Positions 1-48,882 of a stretch of DNA of 64,000 bases are shown here, in pieces (positions within the stretch are counted from its first letter, which is position 1; the number at the start of each line of letters is the position of its first letter). Origin of the DNA: an uncultured Ruficoccus sp. Lineage in GTDB: Bacteria; Verrucomicrobiota; Verrucomicrobiia; Opitutales; Cerasicoccaceae. Where the stretch lies: contig OZ223519.1 in NCBI GenBank assembly GCA_965140785.1, forward strand, positions 335,356 to 399,355. The letters run 5' to 3'. The position numbers were made by a program, and so were the translations under genes. Under the pieces are notes generated by a model. The model was not told where the DNA came from. It made no database searches and saw only the letters and a program-made list of their open reading frames with translations.

Positions 1-1163
1 ACCGCCCCGTCTGCATCATGATGACCGCCTACGGTAATGTGCAGACTGCGGTCGAGGCGATGAAGCACGGCGCTTTCGACTTTCTGACCAAGCCGCTCAA
101 CCTCGAAAAGCTAGAGATTATCATCAAGCGGGCCATCCAGTCCCGCCACCTCGAAACCGAGAACAAGCAGCTCCACCAGCGCCTGGACCGCAAATTCAGC
201 TTCGAGGGGATCGTGGGCAACTCCGCTGCGCTCAACCACGTGCTGGAACAGGTGCGCCAAGTGGCCCCCTCGCGGGCCACGGTCATGCTCTACGGCGACA
301 CCGGCACGGGCAAGGAACTGGTCGCCCAGATGCTCCACCAAAATAGCGACCGCGCGCGGGCGGCATTCGTCCCTGTGCACTGCGCGGCCATCCCGGCCAA
401 CCTGCTTGAGAGCGAGCTGTTCGGGCACGAAAAGGGAGCCTTCACCGGCGCGGCCGAGCGGCGCATCGGGCGCTTCGAGGCCGCCGACGGGGGGACGCTC
501 TTTCTGGACGAGATCGGCGAGATCGACGCCCCGACCCAGGTCAAGCTCTTGCGCTTTCTGGAGACGCGTTCCTTTGAGCGCTTGGGGAGCCACAAACCGA
601 TCCAGGTCGATGTGCGCCTGGTCTGCGCCACCAACCGCGACCTCAAGGACCTCGTGGACAAGGGCGAGTTCCGCGAAGACCTTTACTACCGGCTCAACGT
701 CGTGCCGATCCGCCTGCCGGCCCTGCGGGAGCGCCCGGATGACACCCCGCTTCTGCTCAACCATTTCCTCCAGCAGTTCGCGGAGGAGAACGGCACCCCG
801 CCGGTCAGCCTGACCCCGGAGGCGCTCACCGTCCTCCAGCGCTATGGCTGGCCGGGCAATATCCGCGAACTGCGCAACTTCTGTGAAAACACCGTGGTGA
901 TGAAGCGGGGTGGGGAAGTGACCGAGTACGATCTCGACGCGCGATTCTTCGAGCCGGGTAAACCGTCCTCCTCGTCGGCGAGCCGGAGCGAGCCCGCCCT
1001 GGCCAACCCGCTCTCCAAGGAGGAAAACGAAAAGCGCCTGCTGCGTAACGCCTTGATCGAGGCCAAAGGCAACCGGACCCGCGCCGCCGAACTGATGGGA
1101 ATCAGCCGTCGCACCCTCCATCGCAAACTTGCGCAATGGCCGGAACTGGATGTGCATAACTGA
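1..1163 (+). CDS. sigma-54-dependent response regulator (NtrC/AtoC family), 5'-partial
   Basis: Receiver tail, Walker A GDTGTGKE, GAFTGA motif, WPGNIREL, C-terminal Fis HTH. Confidence 0.95.
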   Translation, partial: RPVCIMMTAYGNVQTAVEAMKHGAFDFLTKPLNLEKLEIIIKRAIQSRHLETENKQLHQRLDRKFSFEGIVGNSAALNHVLEQVRQVAPSRATVMLYGDTGTGKELVAQMLHQNSDRARAAFVPVHCAAIPANLLESELFGHEKGAFTGAAERRIGRFEAADGGTLFLDEIGEIDAPTQVKLLRFLETRSFERLGSHKPIQVDVRLVCATNRDLKDLVDKGEFREDLYYRLNVVPIRLPALRERPDDTPLLLNHFLQQFAEENGTPPVSLTPEALTVLQRYGWPGNIRELRNFCENTVVMKRGGEVTEYDLDARFFEPGKPSSSSASRSEPALANPLSKEENEKRLLRNALIEAKGNRTRAAELMGISRRTLHRKLAQWPELDVHN

Positions 1164-1251
1164 TGTCGCTAGGCAGTACCTTCGAACCTCAAAACTCTGT
1201 AAAAAGATTGAAGATGGTAAAATTGAGACTCTATACTCCGCGCCAACTCTC

Positions 1252-2127
1252 ATGAAATCTACTTTACTCTCACTGTTCGCTACCTCGGTGCTGACACTCG
1301 GTCTGCACGCTGACAAAATTGAAGTCGTCGGCTCGGACCTGCTGCAGGACGCGGTAGTCGAGCCCTTGGAGGCTTTTGCCGACAGGAAGCACCTGGATAT
1401 CGGGATCGACCTGTACGGGAGCATTCCGGCTATGTCCCAGCTCCGTAATAACGAGGCGCAGTTGGCCTTTATCGCCAGGCCGGACGAGGGGAAGTTTCAG
1501 ATCGACGGCTTGAAGATCATTCCCTTCGCCTACCAGGTGGCGGTTATCGCCGTAAACAGCGACAACCCGCTTACGGAGCTCAATCTCAAGCAGTTGGCCG
1601 GTATTTTCGGCACATCCTCAGAGGAGTATTACGGTCGTTGGGGCGAGCTCGGCCTGAGCGGCAACATGGCCACGCGCTCCATCCAGCCCATCGTGGTGGA
1701 AACGCCCAATTCCGTTGTGCGGGAGTTATTCAAGTATAAGGCGCTCCAGCGCGCCCCCTTTAAGTCAAACACGCTGACAGTGGAAAACTTTGAAGAAAGC
1801 CCGGAGCTGCTGGTTAGCGACAGCGGAGCGATCGGGATCTTCCCTTATGTCCCACGGCAGAACAACCTGCGGGTGATCTCGATTTCCGGCAGCGAGCCGG
1901 GCTCGTTCGCCTATGGTCCCAGCCGTGAGAATGTCTATCTTGGCTCTTATCCGCTGCGTCTGCCCTTTTATCTGGTTTATAAACCATCGAATAAGGAAAA
2001 AGTTCGCGAAATTCTTCGCTTTATGCTGAGTGAGGACATGTCTAAGTCATTGGAAGAGAATGGTTTTATGCCTCTTCCAGAAAATGTTCGAAAACGTACC
2101 GTTCTGGAACTTGACATTGGCTCCTGA
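1252..2127 (+). CDS. PstS-like periplasmic substrate-binding protein
   Basis: Signal peptide MKSTLLSLF..LHA, VVGSD, VNSDNPLTEL, YPLRLPFYLV resemble the PstS/PBP_like_2 fold. Confidence 0.75.
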   Translation: MKSTLLSLFATSVLTLGLHADKIEVVGSDLLQDAVVEPLEAFADRKHLDIGIDLYGSIPAMSQLRNNEAQLAFIARPDEGKFQIDGLKIIPFAYQVAVIAVNSDNPLTELNLKQLAGIFGTSSEEYYGRWGELGLSGNMATRSIQPIVVETPNSVVRELFKYKALQRAPFKSNTLTVENFEESPELLVSDSGAIGIFPYVPRQNNLRVISISGSEPGSFAYGPSRENVYLGSYPLRLPFYLVYKPSNKEKVREILRFMLSEDMSKSLEENGFMPLPENVRKRTVLELDIGS

Positions 2128-2139
2128 AGTCACCACATT
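2111..2139 (+). promoter_or_regulatory. putative sigma-70 promoter of tRNA-Gly
   Basis: TTGACA-17 nt-CACATT, 18 nt upstream of the tRNA and overlapping the end of the upstream CDS. Confidence 0.55.
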
Positions 2140-2157
2140 ACCCAACTTTCAGATTAA

Positions 2158-2233
<76 letters not shown>

Positions 2234-2239
2234 CTTTTT

Positions 2240-2275
2240 AAGCCTCCGGAAACATAGTTTTCGGGGGCTTTTTTT
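2240..2275 (+). terminator. rho-independent terminator after tRNA
   Basis: AAGCCTCCGGAAAC..GTTTTCGGGGGCTT followed by a T-run. Confidence 0.8.
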
Positions 2276-2285
2276 GTGCCGAGGT

Positions 2286-2426
2286 GAAGAGGTGAGAACT
2301 CGAGCAGAGAGTTTGACGGAGCCCGCCGGTGGCGGGCGGAGATGGCCCCCGTCGGCCGATCAGGCCGATGGGCCGCGCAGCGGTGAGGCCGCGCCTCAGA
2401 CAACCTCTTCGCTCGCTCCACTTTTT
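2286..2426 (+). repeat. tRNA-linked palindromic element ending in a duplicate of the tRNA 3' end
   Basis: 2402-2426 is identical to 2215-2239 (25 bp); 2286-2301 is a near-inverted copy of the T-arm; internal hairpins. Confidence 0.85.
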
Positions 2427-2540
2427 TGTGCCTGTCGGACTGGGAGCTGCTGGCAATTGAAGGGCTGGGTGAGAGACGAGTTTGTGGTGGGTGCGACTTC
2501 TGAGTTGATGGGGGCGTGAGTGAGCGTCACACTGTGTTGA

Positions 2541-4913
2541 TTGGATCAGGGAAGTATCATTCAAGATCTGACGCTGGTTGTCCTGTGTGCGGCGGTCGTC
2601 ACGGTTATTTTTTATAAACTGAGGTTGCCGGTGATCCTCGGCTATCTGCTGGCGGGCGTATTCATCGGCCCGTACATGCCGCACTTGCCTTCCCTCAAGG
2701 ATGCTGGATCGATCCAGCAATTGAGCGAGCTGGGGGTCATCTTCCTGATGTTCTTCATCGGGCTGGAGTTCGACATCGGGCGGCTGAAGAAGGTCTTCTG
2801 GCCCGCCTTTATCGCGGCGGTATTGCAATCGGTGATCGTGTTTTTCATCGGGGTGATGTGCGCGCCGCTGGTCGGGTATTCACCGCTGGAGGGGATTTTT
2901 CTGGGCGGGGTATTGACCAACTCGGCCTCGCTGCTGTGTATCAAGATTCTCAAGGACAAGGGCCGGCTCAAGCATGCCGACGCGCACATGGCGATCGGTA
3001 TCCTGCTCTTCGAAGACATGGTGGCGATCATGCTGCTGGTTGTCCTGAGCGGGGTCAGCGTGTCGCACCATTTTCAGGTGGACGCGGTGTACGAGATCAC
3101 GTTCCTGCTCGGGGTATTTGTCGTCGGGGTGTATTTTCTCGGTCGGGTACTGGCTCCGTGGCTGAGCCGCCTGATGAAAAAGGTCAACTCCGGCGAGATC
3201 ATCACGCTGCTGACGGTGGCGCTGGTGCTGGGGGTGGGCCAACTGGCGCAGATGTCGAGTTTTTCGATTTCGCTGGGAGCGTTTCTGGCCGGTGCGATCA
3301 TGGCGCAGACCCAGATGGTGGGGGAGATTCAGCGCATCACCGAGCCTTTCCGTAATCTTTTCAGCGCGGTCTTTTTCGTCACCATCGGGATGCTGATCGA
3401 TCCGGGCTGGCTGCTGTCGAACTGGCTGGCGGTCGGCTTCGTCGCCGCGCTGGTCATCGTGGGAAAAATCGTCACCTGCTGGCTGGGGCTGTTCGTGGGC
3501 GGTCAGAGCGCCGAGACCGGTTTCCGCGCCTCGCTCTCGAAGGCCAGCGTGGGCGAATTCGGCTTCATCATCGCGGCCATGGGGCAGGCCTCCGGGGCGA
3601 CCGGGCAGAACCTGACCAGCATGACGGTCGGACTGGCGCTGGTCACGTACATGATCATGCCGGTCCTCAACGCCGACCCGGGCCGGGCCTTCGGCTGGCT
3701 GGCGGAGAAGACGCCCGACCAGGTCAAGGTGGCCGGACGCATTTACGAAAAGATGCTCGACGCGATCGGCCGGCGGGTGGGGCGGATCACGTTTTTCCGG
3801 CTGGCGCGCCGCCCGCTGATCCAGATTTTAATCAATTTCCTCCTGCTCAACGGCATCCTGATCATCGCCTACATCGGCGCCCGCTACTGCGCCCGTCTGC
3901 CAGAGGTGAGCGGCTACACCCGTTGGGTTCACGCCGGGGTCTGGCTGCTGGCCGCGGGGTTGTGCCTACCGTTCATTTCCTCGGTTATCCGCAATCTGGA
4001 CGTCCTCATCCACCTGGTGACCTCGACCGTCTTCCACAGCAGCCGCAACCCGCAACTGCTCAGTGGCCGGATGGCCAACCTCGTGCACACCATCATGCTC
4101 TCGCTGGTCATTGTAATCTTTGGCGGGATCTACCTCTCGGCGGCCTCGCCGTTTTTCCCCTCCGGGGTGACGCTGGCGCTGTTCATCGTGGCCGGCTGCG
4201 TGGCGCTGGTGATTTTCTGGAAGTCGATCATCAACATCAACAGCCGGATGGAGTACCTCTTCCTGCAAAGCTTCCAGGAGCAGACGGTGGAGAACGAGGA
4301 GCAGCTCCGCCAGGCCACACTGCGGGAGCTCTCGCACGTGCACCGCTGGCAGATCGAGGTGGAAACCGTCACCATCGCCGATGACTCCATCGCCTGCGGC
4401 ATGCTGCTGCGCGAGATGCACCTGCGCAAGAAAACCGGAGCCTCCATCGTCGCCATCAGCCGCGGCGGCACCACCCACTACGACCCTTCGCCGGAGGTAC
4501 CGGTCTTCGCTGGGGACAACCTCGTGCTGATCGGCTCCGAGGAACAGCTCGCCAACGCCCGCCGCACCCTCGCCAGCAAGTCCCCGGGGAAGCGCCCCGA
4601 GGAGAAACCCTTCCGTATCGAGCGGGTTTTTGTGCGGGCGGATTCCTTCATCGTCGGCCAGACCCTGGCCGGGGGCGAAGTCCGCAACCGCTACCGCGTC
4701 AGTGTCCTGGGCATTCAGCGCGGCAAAAAGCGCATCGCCCCACCGCCGCCGGACGAGATCATCCACGTGGGCGACATCCTGCTCGTGGTGGGCAACGAGG
4801 AAGCGATCCACGCCTTCAAGACGGCCATCGAAGCCGACACCGAGCCGCTGCCCGATGAGCCGCCCCCCGACGAGTCCGACGAAACTGCCATCCCGGACAA
4901 GGCCGAAGGCTGA
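2541..4913 (+). CDS. CPA2 cation:proton antiporter with two C-terminal TrkA-C (RCK-C) domains
   Basis: LPVILGYLLAG, ELGVIFLMFFIGLEF, FED, GEFGFII motifs; two RCK-C repeats. Confidence 0.9.
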   Translation: MDQGSIIQDLTLVVLCAAVVTVIFYKLRLPVILGYLLAGVFIGPYMPHLPSLKDAGSIQQLSELGVIFLMFFIGLEFDIGRLKKVFWPAFIAAVLQSVIVFFIGVMCAPLVGYSPLEGIFLGGVLTNSASLLCIKILKDKGRLKHADAHMAIGILLFEDMVAIMLLVVLSGVSVSHHFQVDAVYEITFLLGVFVVGVYFLGRVLAPWLSRLMKKVNSGEIITLLTVALVLGVGQLAQMSSFSISLGAFLAGAIMAQTQMVGEIQRITEPFRNLFSAVFFVTIGMLIDPGWLLSNWLAVGFVAALVIVGKIVTCWLGLFVGGQSAETGFRASLSKASVGEFGFIIAAMGQASGATGQNLTSMTVGLALVTYMIMPVLNADPGRAFGWLAEKTPDQVKVAGRIYEKMLDAIGRRVGRITFFRLARRPLIQILINFLLLNGILIIAYIGARYCARLPEVSGYTRWVHAGVWLLAAGLCLPFISSVIRNLDVLIHLVTSTVFHSSRNPQLLSGRMANLVHTIMLSLVIVIFGGIYLSAASPFFPSGVTLALFIVAGCVALVIFWKSIININSRMEYLFLQSFQEQTVENEEQLRQATLRELSHVHRWQIEVETVTIADDSIACGMLLREMHLRKKTGASIVAISRGGTTHYDPSPEVPVFAGDNLVLIGSEEQLANARRTLASKSPGKRPEEKPFRIERVFVRADSFIVGQTLAGGEVRNRYRVSVLGIQRGKKRIAPPPPDEIIHVGDILLVVGNEEAIHAFKTAIEADTEPLPDEPPPDESDETAIPDKAEG

Positions 4914-8216: not shown

Positions 8217-9595
8217 ACGCGCCCGCGACCCTTTCCGCGCGGTTGGCCCAGGCCTTGGAGGAACGCCGGGCCCAAGGGCTGGAGCGTACTCTGCGTGCAC
8301 GCGCGTCGGACGAGCCCTTTCTCGATTTAGCTAACAACGACTACCTGCGCCTCTCGCAGCACCCCGCGGTCAAGGCCGCCGCCGTTGCCGCGACTGAACG
8401 GTGGGGGTGCTCATCCTCGGGCTCGCCGCTGATCACCGGCTACACCGCCGAGCACGATGCGCTGCTGGACACGCTCAAGCAGTGGTGCGGCTTCCCCTGC
8501 GGGCTGATCTGGAACACCGGCTTCGCCGCCAACGCCGCCATCCTCAGTGGCCTGCCCAGGCGTGGCGACCTCGTGTTGGCCGACCGGCTGATTCACAACA
8601 GCATGATCAGCGGACTACTGGCCTCGGGGGCGCGTTTGCAGCGTTACCGTCATCTGGACCTCGACCACCTGCGGGAGTTGTTGGAGAAAAACCGCGCAGG
8701 CGAGGGGGCGGTCTTTGTCGTATCGGAAACCGTTTACAGCATGGACGGGGATTACCCGGACCTCCACGCGATGGCTGCGCTGAAGGAGCGCTACGGCTTC
8801 GTCTGGATACTTGACGAGGCGCACGCGCTCGGCTGGTACGGGCGCACCGGCAGCGGCCTGATCGAGGCCGCCGGAGTGACCGGCGCGGTCGATGTCATGG
8901 TCGGCACCCTGGGCAAGGGCCTGGGCTCGATGGGGGCCTTTACGCTTTTTCAGGACGAGGTGCTGCGCCGGTATTTGATCAACCACGCGGGCGAATTCAT
9001 CTACTCGACCTACCTGCCGCCAGCCTGCGCCGCCGCCGCCCGGCAGGCAGTGGAACTCCTTCGCGAAAACCCCGGCCAATGTGACCGCCTGCACGCCCTG
9101 TCCCGCGTCTTTCGGCAAATGCTTCCCGGCGTGCCCGGCAGCGACGCGCCGGACCCCGAACGCAAGGATACCGACGACCTGGCCGCGGGAATCGCTGCCG
9201 CCAGCTGCCCGGTGATCTCCACCGCGGATTACCCGACCGTCGCGGGGACGGATCCACATGGGTGGCCCGCTGGGGACAAGAAATCGAAGGCGGATGAAAA
9301 CGAATACTCTGACGCTGGTGTCAACCCGGAAGGCCCTGCTAACGCTGACTCCCGAGGCGTCGCTGGCGCAGACTCCCGGGTCGTCGCTGGCGCAGACTCG
9401 CCCATCGTCCCCGTGCGCGTCCCTGATCCAGTCAAGGCCGCTGCCGCCCTGCTCGAACAAGGCATCCGCGTGGGAGCGATTCGTCCACCGACCGTGCCCG
9501 CCGGCGAAGGCCGTTTGCGCATCTCCCTCAACGCCGAGCTTGGTGAGGCCGACCTCAAGCGGGTGGCTGCCGCCGTCAACGCCGTCCGCGCATGA
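8213..9595 (+). CDS. bioF: 8-amino-7-oxononanoate synthase with an internal ~90-aa insertion
   Basis: NNDYL, DRLIHNS, YSMDGD, DEAHALG, GTLGKG, IRPPTVP..RLRISL. Confidence 0.92.
   Translation: MNAPATLSARLAQALEERRAQGLERTLRARASDEPFLDLANNDYLRLSQHPAVKAAAVAATERWGCSSSGSPLITGYTAEHDALLDTLKQWCGFPCGLIWNTGFAANAAILSGLPRRGDLVLADRLIHNSMISGLLASGARLQRYRHLDLDHLRELLEKNRAGEGAVFVVSETVYSMDGDYPDLHAMAALKERYGFVWILDEAHALGWYGRTGSGLIEAAGVTGAVDVMVGTLGKGLGSMGAFTLFQDEVLRRYLINHAGEFIYSTYLPPACAAAARQAVELLRENPGQCDRLHALSRVFRQMLPGVPGSDAPDPERKDTDDLAAGIAAASCPVISTADYPTVAGTDPHGWPAGDKKSKADENEYSDAGVNPEGPANADSRGVAGADSRVVAGADSPIVPVRVPDPVKAAAALLEQGIRVGAIRPPTVPAGEGRLRISLNAELGEADLKRVAAAVNAVRA
9347..9399 (+). repeat. 24-bp tandem repeat (2.2 copies) inside bioF
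   Basis: GACTCCCGAGGCGTCGCTGGCGCA / GACTCCCGGGTCGTCGCTGGCGCA / GACTC. Confidence 0.85.
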
Positions 9596-10215
9596 AGAGG
9601 GTGCTGTGGATAGGTGGCTGGGGTTGCCCGGCTGAGTCGATGCGGGCTTTTGCGCAGGCTGTCTGCCCCGAGGCCGACCATCGCGTTGGGCTTCCGACTG
9701 CCGGATGTATCGAAAATTTGGATACGTCCGACGTGGACGTCATTATCGCTTACTCGACGGGCGCGTTCCTGCTCTGCGGTGCGCCGAAGATAATGGCGTC
9801 GGTTGAGCGCGTGGTGCTGGTGGCGCCATTCTGCGACTTTCGGGCCGAGTCCGGGCGCGGTGGAAAAACGCCGAGCGGAAAAATCCGCTTCCTGCTGCGC
9901 TGGTTGCGGCGCGACCCACTGGCGGCGCTTCAGGATTTTTACCCGCGTGCCGGGCTGGGGGAGCCGCCCTCGGAGCTTCCCTATGCGCAGGAAGATTTGA
10001 TCTGGGGGATCGAACAGCTCGCCGAAATTGCCCAGCCGTCTCCAGCCGATGCCAACCATGCGCGGGCGCACAAGCTGACCGCGCTGGCCGGGGATGCGGA
10101 CCCGCTGCTGGACCCGGAGGGGCTGCGGGCGGACTTTCCCGCGCTGCGGGTGGTGCCCGGTGCCGGGCATGCGCTCGGGGATTTTAGGAAGGAGCTGGGC
10201 GATGCGCTTCGGTGA
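9592..10215 (+). CDS. alpha/beta hydrolase, probable pimeloyl-ACP methyl ester esterase (BioH/BioG-like)
   Basis: GGWG oxyanion motif, AYSTG nucleophile elbow, D..GH; lies between bioF and bioC. Confidence 0.75.
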   Translation: MKRVLWIGGWGCPAESMRAFAQAVCPEADHRVGLPTAGCIENLDTSDVDVIIAYSTGAFLLCGAPKIMASVERVVLVAPFCDFRAESGRGGKTPSGKIRFLLRWLRRDPLAALQDFYPRAGLGEPPSELPYAQEDLIWGIEQLAEIAQPSPADANHARAHKLTALAGDADPLLDPEGLRADFPALRVVPGAGHALGDFRKELGDALR

Positions 10216-10912
10216 ACGCGCCGGGGAGTATGCCGCGCACGCCTTTGTGCAGCGCGATCTGGTGGAGTGGGGGAGTCGGTGGCTGCCCGATTCGCTGGCT
10301 CAGTCCGAAGTGCTGGAGCTGGGCGCGGGGCCGGGTCTGCTGACGCGTGAACTGCTGAGCCGTGGCGCGGATGTGCTCGCAACGGATCTGGCGGCAGGCA
10401 TGGTCGAGGCGGGTCGCCAGCAGTACCCGCAGGCACGTTGGGAAGTGATGAACGCCTGGCAGCCGAAGGGCGAGTATGACTTTATCTGCTCCTCGGCGCT
10501 CATGCAGTGGGCACGCGATCCGGCGGCGGTGCTGACACGCATGGCCGGAGTGCTGCGACCCGGTGGGCGTATGCTGCACTTGTTTTTTATCGATCCGACA
10601 CTGAGCGAATTTCGGCGGTTGGCCCCTGACTGGAATCCCTTCGTGTGGCGAAATTCCGATGCCTGGCAATGGGCTTTCGAGGCTGCCGGGCTGGAGGTGG
10701 CGCGGGCGGAGGAGGAGACGCACCGGATGGTCTTTTCCAACGCGCGGGAGCTGCTGCGCTTTTTTCAGCGTACCGGCGCGGTCGGGCGTAACCACGCACG
10801 ACCGGGCGAGCTGCGCCATTTTCTGCGTGAGTACGAGCGCCACTTTCAGGAGGGTGACGGGGTGGTCAGCACATGGACCTTTTTCCGCATCGAGGCAGTG
10901 AAGCCGGAGTAA
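10202..10912 (+). CDS. bioC: malonyl-ACP O-methyltransferase
   Basis: RFGERAGEY..AFVQ, LELGAGPG SAM motif, SSALMQW. Confidence 0.85.
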   Translation: MRFGERAGEYAAHAFVQRDLVEWGSRWLPDSLAQSEVLELGAGPGLLTRELLSRGADVLATDLAAGMVEAGRQQYPQARWEVMNAWQPKGEYDFICSSALMQWARDPAAVLTRMAGVLRPGGRMLHLFFIDPTLSEFRRLAPDWNPFVWRNSDAWQWAFEAAGLEVARAEEETHRMVFSNARELLRFFQRTGAVGRNHARPGELRHFLREYERHFQEGDGVVSTWTFFRIEAVKPE

Positions 10913-29789: not shown

Positions 29790-31608
<1,819 letters not shown>

Positions 31609-43307: not shown

Positions 43308-43681
43308 CTCTTCTTTGCGGCTTTTTTTGCCCGTTTCTTTTTCGGTTGGGGGATGACGCCGAAGCGCGGGTCTTCCTCCAGCACGTAATCCACGATGCGC
43401 CCGGCCACCGTCTCGAACTGGTCGTCCTCGGCGTGGAGCATGAGCCACTTGGGCAGGATGGGGTGGTTCGTCAGCATGGGAAACTCCGCCACGATGGCGG
43501 CGTGCTGGTCGCGTTCGGCGGGCACGAGAAAGGCGTTCCAGGGTTCCTCGCCCTCGGCCAGCACGGCCACGAGTTTCCCCCGGTAGTAACAGCCCAGGCA
43601 GCCGAACATATGCCGCCGCATATAGCCGGGCCGCTCGGCCAGCGGCTCCATCAGGTACTCATAGGGGTGGCGTTTGGCCAT
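43304..43681 (-). CDS. hypothetical protein (TfoX-N/MmcQ-like)
   Basis: RHMFGC..Y..GKL, HPILPKW, DPRFGVIP; stop overlaps the mscS stop. Confidence 0.7.
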   Translation of the reverse strand: MAKRHPYEYLMEPLAERPGYMRRHMFGCLGCYYRGKLVAVLAEGEEPWNAFLVPAERDQHAAIVAEFPMLTNHPILPKWLMLHAEDDQFETVAGRIVDYVLEEDPRFGVIPQPKKKRAKKAAKKS

Positions 43682-43780
43682 GAGGGAGAGGTTAACACCC
43701 GGCCGCTGGGGCGCAAGTCTCCAGCGGGCCGCCCGCTTTGGCCCTTGACCGCCGCGCCCGGAGCGCAGACAAACACGGTC

Positions 43781-44776
43781 ATGTTTGTCGATGAAGTTAA
43801 CATACGCCTGAAGGCCGGAGACGGCGGCAACGGTTGCATGAGTTTCCGGCGCGTGGCGCACAACCCCAAGGGCGGCCCCGACGGTGGCAACGGCGGTCGC
43901 GGCGGCGACATTATCCTCGTGTGCGACCCGAACACTGCGGACTTCACCGACTACAAGTTCAAGCCCCACGCCGCCGCCAAGAACGGCGTGCCCGGCAAGG
44001 GCTCGGACAAGGACGGCGCCCACGGCTCCTCGCTCAAATTAAAAATGCCCCCCGGCACGGTCGTGATCGACGAGGCGACCGGGCGTACCGTTCTCGAACT
44101 GGTCGAGTACGGCCAGGAGGTCGTCCTGCTCAAGGGCGGCAAGGGCGGCATGGGCAACACCACCTTCAAGTCCTCCACCAATCAGGCTCCCCGCAAATAC
44201 ACGCCCGGCCAGCCCGGCGAGGAGGGCAACTACAAGCTGGTGCTCAAGTCCATCGCCGACATCGGCCTGGTCGGCTTCCCCAACGCGGGCAAGTCCACCC
44301 TCATCAGCCTGCTGACCGGGGCCGAGCCCAAGACCGCGAGCTACCCCTTTACCACGCTCCAGCCGACCGTGGCAGTGGTCGAGTATCCCCAGACTTACGA
44401 GCGCCTGACCATGGCCGACATCCCCGGCCTGATCCAGGGCGCCCACGAGAACCGCGGCCTCGGCCATCGCTTCCTGCGCCACATCGAGCGCTGCCACCTC
44501 CTGCTCATCCTGATCGACATGGCCGGGACCGACGGACGCAAGCCCAAGGACGACTACAAGCAGCTCATTGAGGAATTGCGCCTCTACGACGAGGCCATGC
44601 TGGAGAAGCCCCGCCTCATCGTGGCCAACAAGATGGACGAGCCCGAGGCGAAGAAAAACCTCACCGCCTTCAAGCGCTCCGTCCGCCACGAGATCCTGAA
44701 ACTGTCCTGCCTCAGCGAAGAGGGCCTCCCCGAACTCAAGGAGACCCTCCGCCAGCGCGTCCTCGTGGACAAGTAA
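43781..44776 (+). CDS. obgE: GTPase Obg
   Basis: MFVDEV..GDGGNG, GFPNAGKST, YPFTT, DIPG, NKMD. Confidence 0.97.
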   Translation: MFVDEVNIRLKAGDGGNGCMSFRRVAHNPKGGPDGGNGGRGGDIILVCDPNTADFTDYKFKPHAAAKNGVPGKGSDKDGAHGSSLKLKMPPGTVVIDEATGRTVLELVEYGQEVVLLKGGKGGMGNTTFKSSTNQAPRKYTPGQPGEEGNYKLVLKSIADIGLVGFPNAGKSTLISLLTGAEPKTASYPFTTLQPTVAVVEYPQTYERLTMADIPGLIQGAHENRGLGHRFLRHIERCHLLLILIDMAGTDGRKPKDDYKQLIEELRLYDEAMLEKPRLIVANKMDEPEAKKNLTAFKRSVRHEILKLSCLSEEGLPELKETLRQRVLVDK

Positions 44777-44994
44777 GCCGGTTGCACGCCTTCCCGCCTG
44801 CTTCGATGAAAAGGGTGGGGGTAACAGCAAGACCGGGAAGATCGAAACGAAAGGACTGGCCGGTTCTCTCGGCCTTGCCGGTACGATCCGGGTTGAAGGC
44901 TTTGCGCTGCGAAGGATAAAAGTGCCGCAGTGCCAGCAGGCGGAACGCACCGCCAGGCCGTGTTTTTAAATTACTCGCTTATTGGTTTTTTAGA

Positions 44995-45120
44995 GTTGTC
45001 ATCCTGAGCGAGCGCAGCGAGTCGAGGGATCGCCCTGTTCAAGTCTTTGTGGGCTTCCAGTAGATTTGCACGGGGAGATCCTTCGATGCGGCCGCAAGCG
45101 GACTTCCTCAGGATGACAAC
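44995..45120. repeat. MITE/REP-like palindromic element
   Basis: Perfect 14-bp terminal inverted repeat GTTGTCATCCTGAG/CTCAGGATGACAAC with an inner GGATC/GATCC pair. Confidence 0.85.
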
Positions 45121-45320
45121 AGGGATGATCCACGGTGAAAAACAGACTCCAACCGGCTCAAATACATGGACTTAATCCGGTATGAGTTCCGTCCTTTGAC
45201 GAGAGCGCCTGAGGCATCGGACTTCCTTATTTTCTAACAAATTGGCGTAGGCGGTCATTTATGGCTGGCAACCATCGTATTAGGCACTCAAACTTGGCTT
45301 GAGCTCCAACGACAATTACC

Positions 45321-45541
45321 ATGGCACAATTCGCTACAACCGAATCCGACGTGCTCACGCTCGCGCAAGAGACGAAATCCGGCCTCGCGGCCAATACCGA
45401 CGTGTATCCGCGCCCGCCCGTCAGCCCCGCGATCCTCCTCAACCACATCGACGAGTTCAACAACCGGCGAACGACGCCGTCGCCGCCCACGCCGCCGCGG
45501 AGGAGGCCACCGCCGCCAAGCAAGCCGCCTTGACCGCTATT
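45321..45541 (+). pseudogene. truncated, frameshifted gene fragment
   Basis: MAQF..E..LAQ..GL.AN..VYP.PPV.P then, in another frame, AVAAHAAAEEATAAKQAAL; ends abruptly at AT-rich DNA; resembles the helical N-terminus seen on some FN3-domain proteins. Confidence 0.5.
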
Positions 45542-45607
45542 CTATTCAGATATTATTCCAAATAGGATGATAGCTGGAAATCCACTAATTACTTGTTTGG
45601 TAAAAGA

Positions 45608-46195
45608 ATGAACCTACTACCCAAGAGGCCACAAATGACTCCTGAGTGCTTTCAGGAGCACTGGACGGAACTGATCGAGAAGCCGCTCCTTAGCCGTGGG
45701 TTTAAAGCATCTGGCAAGACTCTCTACACCGAAAATAATGAATGCACACTGGCACTAATCAGACTCGGGGGAAGAAAGAGCAGTCCAGGAACCATCTGCC
45801 ACACATTCTGTTTCAGGCATTCGTTTCTAAGAAATCTGAATAAAGAATTTCCAAAGAAATTTGAGAAGGAAGTATTTGCATATCCAATCAAGTTTGAGCC
45901 ATCGAAAATCTCAAGCATCGGTAAAGAAGGCTGGCGCTACATACCCACAAACCTAAACTACCCAACTGAGCGAATAGATTTCTCGAAGAAAAAAGAAAAC
46001 CATCTTATTGCAGAACTAAAGCAATTGCAGAGTGATCTGCTAGAAGCGTGTGGGTTCTTACCGAAAATTCTAAAATCTGAAGTTATGGAATACCAGATTC
46101 GAGAGAATGGTGAGGATGCATGGATCGAGCGGATCTGGCTGGAAGATTACGAAAACCAAAGGACCGAACAAAGCGGTGCTGAACGACGTCGCTAA
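45608..46195 (+). CDS. cassette 1 hypothetical protein (possibly DUF4304-like)
   Basis: ATG 6 nt after GTTTGGT; low GC; stop codon lies inside attC1. Confidence 0.7.
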   Translation: MNLLPKRPQMTPECFQEHWTELIEKPLLSRGFKASGKTLYTENNECTLALIRLGGRKSSPGTICHTFCFRHSFLRNLNKEFPKKFEKEVFAYPIKFEPSKISSIGKEGWRYIPTNLNYPTERIDFSKKKENHLIAELKQLQSDLLEACGFLPKILKSEVMEYQIRENGEDAWIERIWLEDYENQRTEQSGAERRR

Positions 46196-46223
46196 CGCGC
46201 CGCGCCAGAGCTTTACGTTGGGC
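46163..46223 (+). mobile_element. attC site 1
   Basis: ACCGAAC-AAAGCGGTGCTG...CAGAGCTTTAC-GTTGGGC, 61-bp imperfect palindrome. Confidence 0.82.
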
Positions 46224-46231
46224 AAAAGAAA

Positions 46232-46561
46232 ATGTCAGATTTAGCACAGTCCTCTGCTCGTTTTATCGAGAAGTTCTCCCAGCTAGCCAAGCGATTGGCC
46301 GACATGGGGGTTACCACGCATACGGCAGACCTCAAATGGGGCAGCTTTGGATGCTTCACCCTCATGGCAATGAAAGAAAATGAAGCGATACGATTTCAGT
46401 ATGACGGACGAGATTCGTTTGTCACAGTTGAGGGCTCGCCTGTCCGTGAATACTCATACCCAAATGATTGGAAAGAATTAATAGTAAAGGGAATGAATAA
46501 TCAGAATGATGAGGTGCTCAGATTCATCGAAGAGTTTCTCAGAAAGAGATTCAACTTTTAG
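46232..46561 (+). CDS. cassette 2 hypothetical protein
   Basis: Lies between attC1 and attC2; low GC. Confidence 0.7.
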   Translation: MSDLAQSSARFIEKFSQLAKRLADMGVTTHTADLKWGSFGCFTLMAMKENEAIRFQYDGRDSFVTVEGSPVREYSYPNDWKELIVKGMNNQNDEVLRFIEEFLRKRFNF

Positions 46562-46583
46562 CCAAAATATGAAACCGAACAAG

Positions 46584-46645
46584 GCCCAACAAGGCATTAG
46601 AGGACAACTCCGTTACGCGCTCCGTGCCTCACTTTGACGTTCGCT
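46584..46645 (+). mobile_element. attC site 2
   Basis: GCCCAAC-AAGGCATTAGAGG...CCTCACTTTGAC-GTTCGCT, 62 bp; GCCCAAC is the exact complement of the cassette's 5' GTTGGGC. Confidence 0.85.
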
Positions 46646-46653
46646 AAAAGAAA

Positions 46654-46790
46654 ATGACGACTCCAGAACTTATCTCACTCATTGCATCTATCGCGTCATT
46701 AATCCTCGCGGTTGGGGCAATTTGGCTTTCCATCACGTTCTACAAAATGTCTGCTGAAGCTAGCAAAGCTACCGAAGAAGCGGCAATGGG
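46654..46790 (+). pseudogene. cassette 3 ORF, probably truncated (N-terminal TM segment only)
   Basis: MTTPELISLIASIASLILAVGAIWLSITFYK..; reading frame runs on into repeat DNA; no attC follows. Confidence 0.55.
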
Positions 46791-46822
46791 CCAGTTTCAG
46801 GGGGCCCTGCCAAAAGTTATTG

Positions 46823-46915
46823 GCCACAAAAGGCACAAAAAGCACAAAACCGGAACGTACCGCTCTAGAGGCGCATCTTATCCTGATTTTTGTGAGTTTT
46901 GTGTCTTTTTGTGGC
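46823..46915. repeat. inverted array of 9-bp tandem repeats
   Basis: GCCACAAAAGGCACAAAAAGCACAAAA ... TTTTGTGAGTTTTGTGTCTTTTTGTGGC. Confidence 0.85.
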
Positions 46916-46958
46916 TCAAAAACAGTCAGCTCTAGCGATTCAAAAATACGGTAGCCCG

Positions 46959-47037
46959 AATGGCTAAATGGCTGATGGTTAATTGCCGGACGCTTACGGA
47001 GAAAACAACAATTAGCCATTTCAGCCATTTAGCCATT
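46959..47037. repeat. inverted array of 8-bp tandem repeats
   Basis: Perfect 17-bp inverted repeat AATGGCTAAATGGCTGA/TCAGCCATTTAGCCATT. Confidence 0.85.
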
Positions 47038-47108
47038 ATGCCTTTCGATCGGGGCTACGATTTTATTGAACCGCTTGCTCGAACTATTTGAACCGCTCTA
47101 ACACCAGG

Positions 47109-48791
47109 CTAGGGGGCAGGGCATGCCGTGCCGCGGATCATTTCGCGGTTGGCGCCGCCGGGCGGGACCATGGGCAGGACCTGTTGTTCGACGCAGGTGG
47201 GGGCGTTGATCAGGACCGGGCCGGGACGGGAGAAGGCTTCGGCCAGCGCGGCGTCGATATCCGGCTCGTCGGCCAGATCGACGGCGTCCATCCCCATGGC
47301 CCGCGCCATCAGCGCGAAGTCCGGCCCGTGCTGGAACTTCGAGGCGATCAGGCGCTTGCCGAAGAACAGGGTCTGCTGCTGGTGGACCAGTCCGAGCGAC
47401 TGGTTGTTCATCAGCACAACCTTCAGGTCGGCCCCGGCCTCGGCGGCGGTGATCATCTCCTGATTGTTCATGAGAAAGCTGCCGTCGCCGCTGATGCAGA
47501 CGACGGGGCACTCGGGCTCGGAGAGGGCCGCCCCGAGGGCCGCCGGCAGACCGAAGCCCATCGTGCCCAGTCCGCCGCTGGTCAGCCATTGGCGCGGACG
47601 GCAGAAGGGAAAGGCCTGCGCCGTCCACATCTGGTGCTGGCCGACGTCGGTGGCGACGATGGCGTCGCGCCCGGCGTGGCGGGCGACGGCGTGGATGAGC
47701 CCGTAAGGCGTTGCCGGGTCGTCCCGCCCCGGCATGGCCATGGGGTGGGTCGCTTTGAGCGTGGCGATACGGGCGGTCCAGTCCGCGCGGCTGCGTTCGG
47801 GTAAGTGCTCCAGCAGGCGCGTGAGGAAGCGCCCGACATCGGCGCGGACGGCCAGGGTGGGCTGACGGATTTTTCCCAGTTCGGAGCTGTCGATATCGAC
47901 ATGGATGACGCTCGCGTGCGGGCAGAATTCGGCCACCTTGCCGGTGGCCCGGTCGTCGAAACGCGCCCCGAGCGCAATCAGCAGGTCGCACTCTTCCAGC
48001 GCCAGGTTGGTGTACGGGGCGGCGTGCATGCCCAGCATCCCCAGGTACTGCGGATGGTCGGTGGGCATTGCGCCGAGGGCCATCAGCGTGCTGACGGTGG
48101 GCAGGTGGGAACGCTCCGCCAACGTGCGGGCCGCCTCGGCGGACTCGCTGTGGATGATGCCCCCGCCCAGGTAAAGAATCGGCTGCCGGGCGGCCTCGAT
48201 CATGGCGGCGGCTTGGGCGACCTCCGCCTCGCCGGGCTCGTCGGGCGCATCGGGCATGCCGGGCTCCGGCCAGTCCTCGAACGTGATCTCGGCCTGTTGA
48301 ACGTCCTTGGGGATGTCGATCCAGACCGGGCCTGGCCGACCGCTGGCGGCCAGGCGAAAGGCCTCCGGGATGACGTGCAGCAGTTCCTCGACGGACTGGA
48401 CGAGGACGTTGTGTTTGGTCACGGGCAGGCTCATGCCGAAGACATCGACCTCCTGAAAAGCGTCCGTCCCGATGAGGGGACGGGCGACCTGCCCGCTGAT
48501 GCAGACCAGCGGGATGGAGTCCAGCTTGGCGTCGGCGACGGCGGTGAGGATGTTCGTCGCGCCGGGGCCGCTGGTGGCGAAGCACACGGCGGGCTGCCCG
48601 GTGGTACGGGCGAGCCCCTGCGCGATGAAGCCCGCGCCCTGCTCGTGGCGGGCGAGGATGTGGCGGATCACCGGCCGGCGGGCCAGGGCGTCGTACAGGG
48701 GCAGGTTGGCCCCTCCGGGGATGCCCGCGATCAGGCGAATCCCTTGGCGTTCCAGCAGGCGGATAACGAGGTCGGCTCCAGTCATTTTCAT
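47109..48791 (-). CDS. ilvB: acetolactate synthase large subunit
   Basis: GIPGGA, RHEQGAG, TSGPGATN, RFDDRATG, DVGQHQMW, GDGSFLMN. Confidence 0.95.
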   Translation of the reverse strand: MKMTGADLVIRLLERQGIRLIAGIPGGANLPLYDALARRPVIRHILARHEQGAGFIAQGLARTTGQPAVCFATSGPGATNILTAVADAKLDSIPLVCISGQVARPLIGTDAFQEVDVFGMSLPVTKHNVLVQSVEELLHVIPEAFRLAASGRPGPVWIDIPKDVQQAEITFEDWPEPGMPDAPDEPGEAEVAQAAAMIEAARQPILYLGGGIIHSESAEAARTLAERSHLPTVSTLMALGAMPTDHPQYLGMLGMHAAPYTNLALEECDLLIALGARFDDRATGKVAEFCPHASVIHVDIDSSELGKIRQPTLAVRADVGRFLTRLLEHLPERSRADWTARIATLKATHPMAMPGRDDPATPYGLIHAVARHAGRDAIVATDVGQHQMWTAQAFPFCRPRQWLTSGGLGTMGFGLPAALGAALSEPECPVVCISGDGSFLMNNQEMITAAEAGADLKVVLMNNQSLGLVHQQQTLFFGKRLIASKFQHGPDFALMARAMGMDAVDLADEPDIDAALAEAFSRPGPVLINAPTCVEQQVLPMVPPGGANREMIRGTACPAP

Positions 48792-48845
48792 AAGTTTTCT
48801 CAGGTTGGCTTGGTGGCCCCTGGAGCACGCCCGACGCGGATGGCT

Positions 48846-48882
48846 AAACAAAAACCCCCCGTCGAACGCATTCGGCAGAGGG
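48846..48882 (-). terminator. attenuator terminator upstream of ilvB
   Basis: Minus strand CCCTCTGCCGAA-TGCG-TTCGACGGGGGG-TTTTTGTTT. Confidence 0.82.

Follow-up and report, generated by a model that had tools for sequence, protein, structure and literature searches.

Between two housekeeping genes of the window (the whole stretch of 64,000 nucleotides analysed here) lies a low-GC islet of 1.5 kb, located at about 45534–46800. The left flanking host gene, obg, encodes a GTPase and occupies 43346..44776 on the plus strand (GTP1_OBG, 1.2e-53), and the right one is an acetolactate-synthase-like gene for a TPP enzyme with TPP_enzyme_N, _M and _C domains, read from the minus strand at 47109..48851; the LpxI and LeuS genes are located farther out from the islet. 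The GC content is 37–50% across 45500–47100 versus 60–74% in the flanks, in agreement with the initial annotation of this DNA, which had described its ORFs as low in GC. On its plus strand the islet carries two ORF+attC modules in full, followed by a third of which only the first 46 codons remain. Its AT-rich left edge (45534..45594), lying 5' of the first core site, is marked by the drop in GC and has a fold z-score of +0.04; neither likeness to attC, nor an AAC inverse core, nor a match in a local search with the covariance model R3 (see below) was found in this segment. The segment is without recognisable feature, and the arrangement of a complete integron, made of intI, attI and an array, is absent. 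Scanning the islet region for promoters and terminators gave counts at the level of shuffled sequences (three promoter-like sites versus 2.2 expected), and both matches returned by an Rfam scan of 44700–47300 were well under the gathering scores.

The three ORFs of the islet start in the same manner. Junctions of the form GTTNNNN-AAAAGA(AA)-ATG are found at 45595, 46217 and 46639, at the very coordinates where three core–leader–ATG starts had been annotated, and a repeat search unites them in one repeat family, GTTNNNNAAAAGAA. On the plus strand, the core GTTTGGT (45595..45601), the 5' boundary of cassette 1, is followed by AAAAGA (45602–45607) and the ATG of ORF1 at 45608; the core GTTGGGC (46217–46223), the 3' end of the attC-like site attC1, is followed by the leader AAAAGAAA (46224..46231) and the ATG of ORF2 at 46232; and the core GTTCGCT (46639–46645), the 3' end of attC2, is followed by AAAAGAAA once more (46646..46653) and the ATG of ORF3 at 46654. 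A 39-nt repeat with 74% identity (46196–46234 versus 46618–46656) takes in the second and third junctions. The 20-nt pattern ACGTTNNNNAAAAGAAAATG is present in two exact copies, with no other in the 64 kb at up to three mismatches; in shuffled sequences the mean was 0.27 copies, and two copies were reached in 3 of 100 shuffles. Conservation in these repeats is highest in the leader (11 of 11 nt), a segment outside attC and past the crossover point. Among 61 true attC sites from three related arrays, no leader was common to the 30-nt stretches that follow them, and the attC crossover model leaves the conservation of AAAAGA(AA)ATG without explanation. The lack of Shine–Dalgarno sequences ascribed to the islet ORFs is real but not distinctive, because most of 15 inspected host genes are also without one.

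Only two of the five cores (GCCCAAC and GTTGGGC) fit the RYYYAAC/GTTRRRY consensus exactly, with one deviating position each in ACCGAAC and GTTTGGT and two in GTTCGCT; deviation from GTTRRRY had been recorded from the outset, and true sites of a related verrucomicrobial array (L003, see below) also stray from the core consensus, e.g., GTTGACG. The inverse core ACCGAAC of attC1 (46163–46169) has a second copy at 46574–46580. In cassette 2, GCCCAAC (46584–46590) is the exact complement of GTTGGGC (7 of 7 positions), and in cassette 1 GTTTGGT pairs with the ACCGAAC of attC1 at six of seven positions, with one G–T wobble. The exact complementarity in cassette 2 had been taken as the sign of a circularisable cassette; the match stands, but since it fits either orientation of the site and does not fix the strand, it is weaker evidence than was first assumed. 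The additional inverse core with its spacer, ACCGAACAAGG, is indeed present ahead of attC2, at 46574..46584 on the plus strand, in tandem with the attC2 start. AACAAGGC occurs twice (46577–46584 and 46588–46595), and the element seems to have arisen by duplicating the beginning of attC2 in tandem; the attC model does not account for it.

ORF2 (46232..46561, plus strand, 109 aa) is a member of a small, unnamed family whose layout is one helix, five strands and a second helix, and has three close homologs. A profile search collected 94 representative proteins at E ≤ 1e-3; among the 29 scanned family members of 107–154 aa, 27 had no Pfam match and two had matches below the cut-off only. Its AF2 model is fairly good (pLDDT 81.9), the fold search against the PDB gave no match (best E 0.14), and all 30 Atlas hits were unnamed clusters. 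ORF3 (46654..46792, plus strand) is truncated and carries an N-terminal transmembrane segment; its four homologs, of 77–150 aa, align to residues 1–46 only and then diverge, and residues 5–45 match phrog_36054, a phage family of unknown function (E 9e-13). Because the homology stops after residue 46, ORF3 appears to be cut near 46792, although its open frame extends to 46935 through unrelated hairpin sequence. In place of the remainder of cassette 3 stand two strong hairpin elements, inverted repeats made of short repeated units (46815–46916 and 46944–47056; fold z = −4.64 and −7.31, respectively), as had been noted in describing cassette 3 as cut off by repeat arrays. These elements lie just beyond the stop codon of the minus-strand acetolactate-synthase gene and coincide with terminator-like matches on that strand; further copies were not found in the 64-kb window. 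We also considered them as a long attC of cassette 3 and rejected this candidate, R3 giving only 7.3 bits (E 3) at 46850–46943.

No fitting family was found in Pfam, NCBIfam or PADLOC for ORF1, ORF2 or ORF3. The best PADLOC E-values of ORF1 and ORF2 were only 0.035 and 0.017, and PHROGs returned nothing usable for either. The cargo, with no PDB fold for ORF1 or ORF2 in addition, is as uncharacterised as it had been called, and nothing in the family, fold and PADLOC searches points to a role in defence or as a toxin.

ORF1 (45608..46195, plus strand) encodes 195 aa, or 186 aa from an alternative start at 45635, and overlaps attC1 with its last 10 codons. It has 11 homologs in a large protein collection, one of them a Lentimonas 'hypothetical protein'. 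AF2 folds it confidently (pLDDT 88.5), with no match in the PDB by fold search (best E 0.32). In a language-model search of the Atlas, 28 of the 30 hits were clusters with DUF4304 as the common Pfam family (lead 0.93). The alignment of ORF1 to the DUF4304 profile (PF14137) covers most of it (positions 2–101 of 115), but at 12.8 bits (E 0.12) it stays under the gathering cut-off of 23.2 bits, and only one of 11 scanned members of the ORF1 family gave a DUF4304 match. ORF1 is perhaps distantly related to DUF4304; a literature search for this domain yielded only an unrelated paper.

A profile scan of a genome collection with the ORF1 alignment gave 13 related loci from Verrucomicrobiota and several Pseudomonadota orders, and in three of them the ORF1 homolog is a true cassette. 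In Photobacterium kasasachensis (L002) it lies between attC sites at 9877–9981 and 10514–10618, among 31 plus-strand attC matches with sites of about 105 nt. In a Xanthomonadaceae MAG (L012) it is flanked by attC sites at 9421–9481 and 10014–10074 in an array of 24 matches; this array follows an integron integrase of TIGR02249 (423.9 bits versus a cut-off of 265), the homolog being 8 kb downstream of the integrase. In a Verrucomicrobia MAG (L003) it lies within a chain of six attC sites (369–3582), where every core can pair with the inverse core that comes next; the attC after the homolog forms a weak hairpin (z −0.86) and scores 12.6 bits, yet it is part of a regular array. The stop codon of the homolog is inside the inverse core (..TAAC) in all three arrays. 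In the window, ACCGAAC stands at the matching place, a few codons past a conserved E/D-Y motif, and the TAA is gone; it is because this inverse core has no TAA that ORF1 reads 10 codons into attC1. A protein 72% identical to ORF1 (P0002) keeps the C-terminal extension in its tail, and the tail of the Lentimonas homolog (P0003, 59% identical), judged from its residues, would fit the same DNA motif in another frame.

The closest relative of ORF1 by locus (L001) is without attC, as are six of the 12 other loci. In a tree of 14 family members with known context, the cassette-borne ones are set apart from each other, and the ORF1 of the window joins a Verrucomicrobiales homolog without attC with a support of 100/99, most other branches being weak. 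The nearest relatives of ORF1 are Verrucomicrobial, an observation that is more telling of the donor pool than of the host. A tblastn search with ORF2, ORF3 and the upstream gene fragment found no relatives in the 13 loci; for neither ORF2 nor ORF3 is there a relative whose genomic context is known.

The islet was confirmed to be integrase-less within the 64 kb. The tyrosine-recombinase domain PF00589 was found in none of 82 ORFs of the window (71 of at least 180 aa and 11 around the islet), and tblastn with the IntI of L012 as a query returned only noise (E ≥ 2.7), with no integrase pseudogene or fragment.

Both attC-like sites begin with NNNNAAC and finish with GTTNNNN. attC1 (46163..46223, plus strand, ACCGAAC ... 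GTTGGGC) has 61 nt and attC2 (46584..46645, plus strand, GCCCAAC ... GTTCGCT) has 62 nt; the length range given for attC in PMC5027507 is 57–141 nt. The sites were evaluated with three substitute covariance models, which were built here from arrays holding ORF1 homologs and are not those of IntegronFinder: R1 from 13 canonical sites, R2 from the six L003 sites and R3 from 60 sites of three arrays. R1, which does recover sites outside its training set (many in L012 and four in L003), gave no match at E ≤ 10 at either attC1 or attC2. With R2, attC2 was the first of 30 matches in the 64-kb window (16.7 bits, E 0.026) and attC1 ranked 11 (10.0 bits, E 2.3). With R3 only four matches at E ≤ 10 were obtained over both strands of the 64 kb, attC2 at rank 1 (15.4 bits, E 0.34) and attC1 at rank 3 (11.0 bits, E 3.9). 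In a local search of 6 kb, similar in spirit to the local mode of IntegronFinder as outlined in PMC4889954, the R3 E-values were 0.032 for attC2 and 0.37 for attC1, and that of the next match was 2.5. The R2 and R3 matches carry exactly the ends and the strand that the initial annotation had assigned to these sites, which lie 421 nt apart.

These scores have to be seen against the background. In 90.5 kb of loci without arrays three matches at E ≤ 10 were obtained, the best with 13.5 bits, and a further control of 95 kb contained eight, three of them clustered in an Alteromonas locus. By these background rates we estimate that chance would produce both matches, with these ends, strand and spacing, roughly a few times in a thousand. 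attC1 alone is not distinguishable from background (rank 11 of 30 with R2), and the window sites, at 11–17 bits, fall far short of true attC sites, which reach 20–103 bits under R1. The attC1 score owes something to plain sequence similarity, since a training site of R2 and R3 shares a 16-nt stretch with it: the first 16 nt of attC1 after the initial A are identical at 15 of 16 positions to the attC at L003:2658–2783. A blastn-short comparison of the islet with the 13 loci revealed only coding similarity and this match in the 5' arm of attC (E 19, not significant alone). A strict attC grammar (spacer, 3 bp, one bulge, at least 5 bp), which elsewhere returns 28 plus-strand matches in L012 and 48 in L002, misses both window sites; it is blind to sites with three extrahelical bases because it requires at least five uninterrupted pairs after one bulge. 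The reverse orientation, with minus-strand attC sites and antisense ORFs, was ruled out, as R2 and R3 put both sites on the plus strand; the sole minus-strand match there is at 46178–46223 (10.1 bits with R2, 6.3 bits in the local search with R3).

The secondary structure of the sites is poor. Compared to shuffled sequences, the fold z-scores on the two strands were +0.13 to +0.39 for attC1 and +0.78 and +1.33 for attC2, the bottom strands having +0.13 and +1.33, respectively, versus −5.07 (the L012 site) and −3.11 for bottom strands of control attC sites and −0.86 for the poor L003 attC after the ORF1 homolog. The canonical fold of the bottom strand has +2.4 kcal/mol versus an MFE of −10.9 in attC1, and +1.7 kcal/mol versus an MFE of −5.1 in attC2. 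With the R box forced, the bottom strand of attC1 forms an end-to-end hairpin of −10.4 kcal/mol versus the MFE of −10.9, and that of attC2 reaches only −4.4. The R3 alignment, in which the geometry is fitted by the model, gives attC2 a 5-nt spacer in each arm, a 3-bp L box with two of three positions paired and unpaired 5'-arm bases on both sides of a 6-bp stem; nine of ten L-box and stem pairs are formed and three A on the 5' arm are unpaired. In attC1 the model-fitted alignment is poorer, with two non-standard pairs and two deletions. The first unpaired base of the bottom strand would be T in attC2 or C in attC1, versus the usual G.

On these sequence features we conclude that both sites probably descend from attC sites but are degenerate. 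The two imperfect palindromes of 61–62 bp that had been reported retain their lengths and AAC...GTT ends, but the word palindrome is generous for structures with fold z-scores of +0.13 to +1.33. The initial annotation had named the lack of both a fold and a model hit as the result that would speak against attC; folding fails, and a match to attC models is present but weak. Its statement that attC architecture is established was too strong: the matches of R2 and R3 are exact in position, but the scores are marginal, R1 has none and there is no stable hairpin.

We regard the islet as an integrase-less piece of an integron cassette array, gained by horizontal transfer, of the CALIN type and probably frozen, and we assign to this reading a probability of roughly 0.75. 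In a working integron, as described in PMC5027507 and PMC4889954, the bottom strand of attC folds into an imperfect hairpin, IntI cleaves within AAC (G|TT when read on the top strand), and the ORF+attC unit is excised as a circle able to re-enter at attI. On this reading, the attC sites of the window retain their ends, length, box spacing and part of the L-box pairing and have lost the stability of the hairpin; the third cassette is left without its attC, and no integrase is within reach. The array is therefore probably frozen or nearly so and inherited as ordinary chromosome. Expression of the cassettes may depend on read-through from upstream, the A-rich leader possibly serving Shine–Dalgarno-independent initiation. 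The integron-cassette origin is supported by the cassette nature of the ORF1 homologs and by the exact ends of the R2 and R3 matches; the integron ancestry of ORF2 and ORF3 and the loss of array mobility we infer.

It is also conceivable, if unlikely, that the array is still functional, i.e., that it is a mobilisable CALIN whose sites belong to a short attC class with three extrahelical bases and are served by a Verrucomicrobial integrase whose gene lies in another part of the genome. The layout of attC2 in the R3 alignment is the geometry described for attC in PMC5027507, with unpaired bases near positions 16, 20 and 24; the inverse core of cassette 2 complements its own 5' end at 7 of 7 positions, and the R-box-forced hairpin of attC1 is close to the MFE. 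According to PMC4889954, half of CALIN are located in IntI-encoding replicons and divergent attC sites are tolerated by integrases, and in L003 a site as poor as the one after the ORF1 homolog is found in a regular array. However, attC2 has no stable hairpin even when the R box is forced, both sites score at background level or close to it, cassette 3 is cut short and lacks an attC, and the 64 kb contain no integrase. That the islet is foreign but has nothing to do with integrons, consisting of short genes each placed behind a repeated transcription or translation signal (the 39-nt repeat ending in AAAAGAAAATG) with incidental AAC...GTT ends, appears quite improbable. The best-conserved stretch is the leader, outside any attC, and such a leader is not shared by the 61 true sites; the missing hairpin stability at both sites and the silence of the canonical model R1 would fit as well. 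Against it are the cassette-borne members of the ORF1 family, whose inverse core is found at the equivalent place, the attC models hitting both sites with exact ends and strand, promoter-like sites at chance level and the absence of an Rfam family at threshold. A transposon-like unit carrying ORF1 and ORF2 between terminal inverted repeats is hardly credible. The 20 nt at 45581–45600, just 5' of the first core, can pair at 80% with those at 46585–46604 in the 5' arm of attC2, a relation that the attC model leaves unexplained, and the two stretches do flank ORF1 and ORF2, but this pair is likely due to chance, because 91 inverted pairs are present in 2.3 kb, several of them of comparable quality. 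Furthermore, the AAC/GTT core motifs in both stretches inflate the match, no transposase was found in the window ORFs by the domain scan and no target duplication is seen in the sequence.

The decayed array fragment which we favour belongs to a known and common kind of element, the small integrase-less cassette cluster, and one such cluster adds little alone. Two readings go beyond an ordinary CALIN and, taken jointly, are rather doubtful. According to one of them, AAAAGA(AA) fused to the core would supply the cassette with its own translation start, suited to hosts in which Shine–Dalgarno sequences are rarely used; if true, this would be a lineage-specific cassette design beyond what the attC crossover model predicts. 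The other starts from the presence of the ORF1 family in four distant arrays, each with its own attC type and with the inverse core always on or near the stop codon. The family would then record the repeated, independent formation of cassettes from one gene family, and this, if true, would bear on the unsolved question of cassette origin. Possible new leads from this locus are confined to the conservation of the leader and the occurrence of ORF1 in arrays of different attC types. Otherwise, the islet may serve as a worked example of cluster decay, with hairpin stability lost, the stop codon lost from the inverse core and the last cassette cut; it also illustrates how an attC call of marginal score can be saved once its cargo gene proves to be a true cassette at other loci. 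Since ORF1 and ORF2 are confidently folded without known fold or function and ORF1 travels in integrons, they are reasonable candidates for functional screens. Among the papers listed by a literature search on integrons, attC sites and Verrucomicrobia, none appears to deal with this element.

CALIN were defined for IntegronFinder as clusters of attC sites lacking an integron integrase, with fewer than six attC sites in 83% of them (PMC4889954). The islet resembles them in being a small element whose two attC-like sites share a strand and are spaced by 421 nt, in its short promoterless ORFs of the same direction and of unknown function and in the absence of intI or an intI pseudogene nearby. 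Unlike CALIN, its sites pass only the substitute models, weakly, and have no stable fold, its last cassette is truncated and the same A-rich leader stands behind each core site. The sedentary chromosomal integron arrays of L012 and L002 carry the same cargo family as the window, and there too the ORF opens a few bases past the core and ends at the inverse core. They differ from the window in their 24 and 31 attC matches, scoring 20.9–103 bits under R1, and in L012 also by the adjoining integrase and by a control site with a z-score of −5.07. In L003 the sites are longer than in the window (75–126 nt) and no A-rich leader comes after them, and four of the five sites outside the R1 training set score 20–28 bits. 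At the same time, L003 has in common with the window the inverse core and spacer motif RCCGAAC-AARGC-GGTGC, the complementarity of core and inverse core chained between cassettes, and the succession of an ORF1 homolog and a poorly folding attC site.

On the obg side of the low-GC islet, the spacer 3' of obg carries a 136-nt hairpin (44990-45125; z -6.4), the terminal arms of which are 14 nt long and perfect (GTTGTCATCCTGAG / CTCAGGATGACAAC); in appearance it resembles REP or MITE-like elements. On this side there is also a high-GC gene fragment at 45299-45565 that is covered by two overlapping frames (45321-45533 and 45299-45565) and appears to be frameshifted. The end point of this fragment is also the start of the islet. 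It had no match in Pfam or PHROGs, and none of the loci retrieved with homologs of ORF1, the cargo gene of cassette 1, contained a relative of it.

At the right edge of the islet, two very stable hairpin elements are found at 46815-46916 and 46944-47056 (fold z -4.6 and -7.3, respectively), together with an outer inverted repeat at 46920-46957 / 47052-47089. Both are made up of short repeated units, with arms of GGCACAAAA type and ATGGCTAAA type, and both lie directly beyond the stop codon of the acetolactate synthase gene; the minus strand gives terminator-like matches here. No further copies of either hairpin were found within the window. These structures may be a host terminator or REP-like elements that have displaced the end of cassette 3.

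Inside the islet, the 20 nt at 45581-45600, running from immediately upstream of the first core site into it, show 80% complementarity with 46585-46604 in the 5' arm of attC2, which could be due to chance or be the trace of a rearranged attC. Elsewhere in the window, the gene for GTP-dependent PEP carboxykinase is divided between two ORFs, 30026-30853 (PEPCK_N and the start of the C-terminal domain) and 30910-31608 (profile positions 135-353), apparently by a frameshift or an assembly error.

Among the ORF1 homologs, those of Photobacterium (L002:10001-10507) and an Arenicellales MAG (L009:10001-10456) appear to contain an internal stop, the translated length up to it being 147 and 141 aa, respectively; similarity extends past the stop, and both may be pseudogenes. 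In Alteromonas, three weak attC-model matches (13.6-16.9 bits) are clustered on one strand at L010:5830-6729, about 3.3-4.2 kb upstream of the ORF1 homolog, and may mark another decayed cassette cluster.

A complete integron is present in a Xanthomonadaceae MAG (L012:235-14496), where the integrase gene (235-1269, - strand) is followed by an array of 24 attC matches on the + strand, within which lies an IS-type transposase gene (HTH_38 + rve; L012:4371-5333, - strand). The ORF1 family is associated with four different, lineage-typical attC types, namely those of Photobacterium, a Verrucomicrobia MAG (L003), the Xanthomonadaceae MAG and the window (46163-46195), and in all four the inverse core lies at the stop codon of the gene or a few codons from it.
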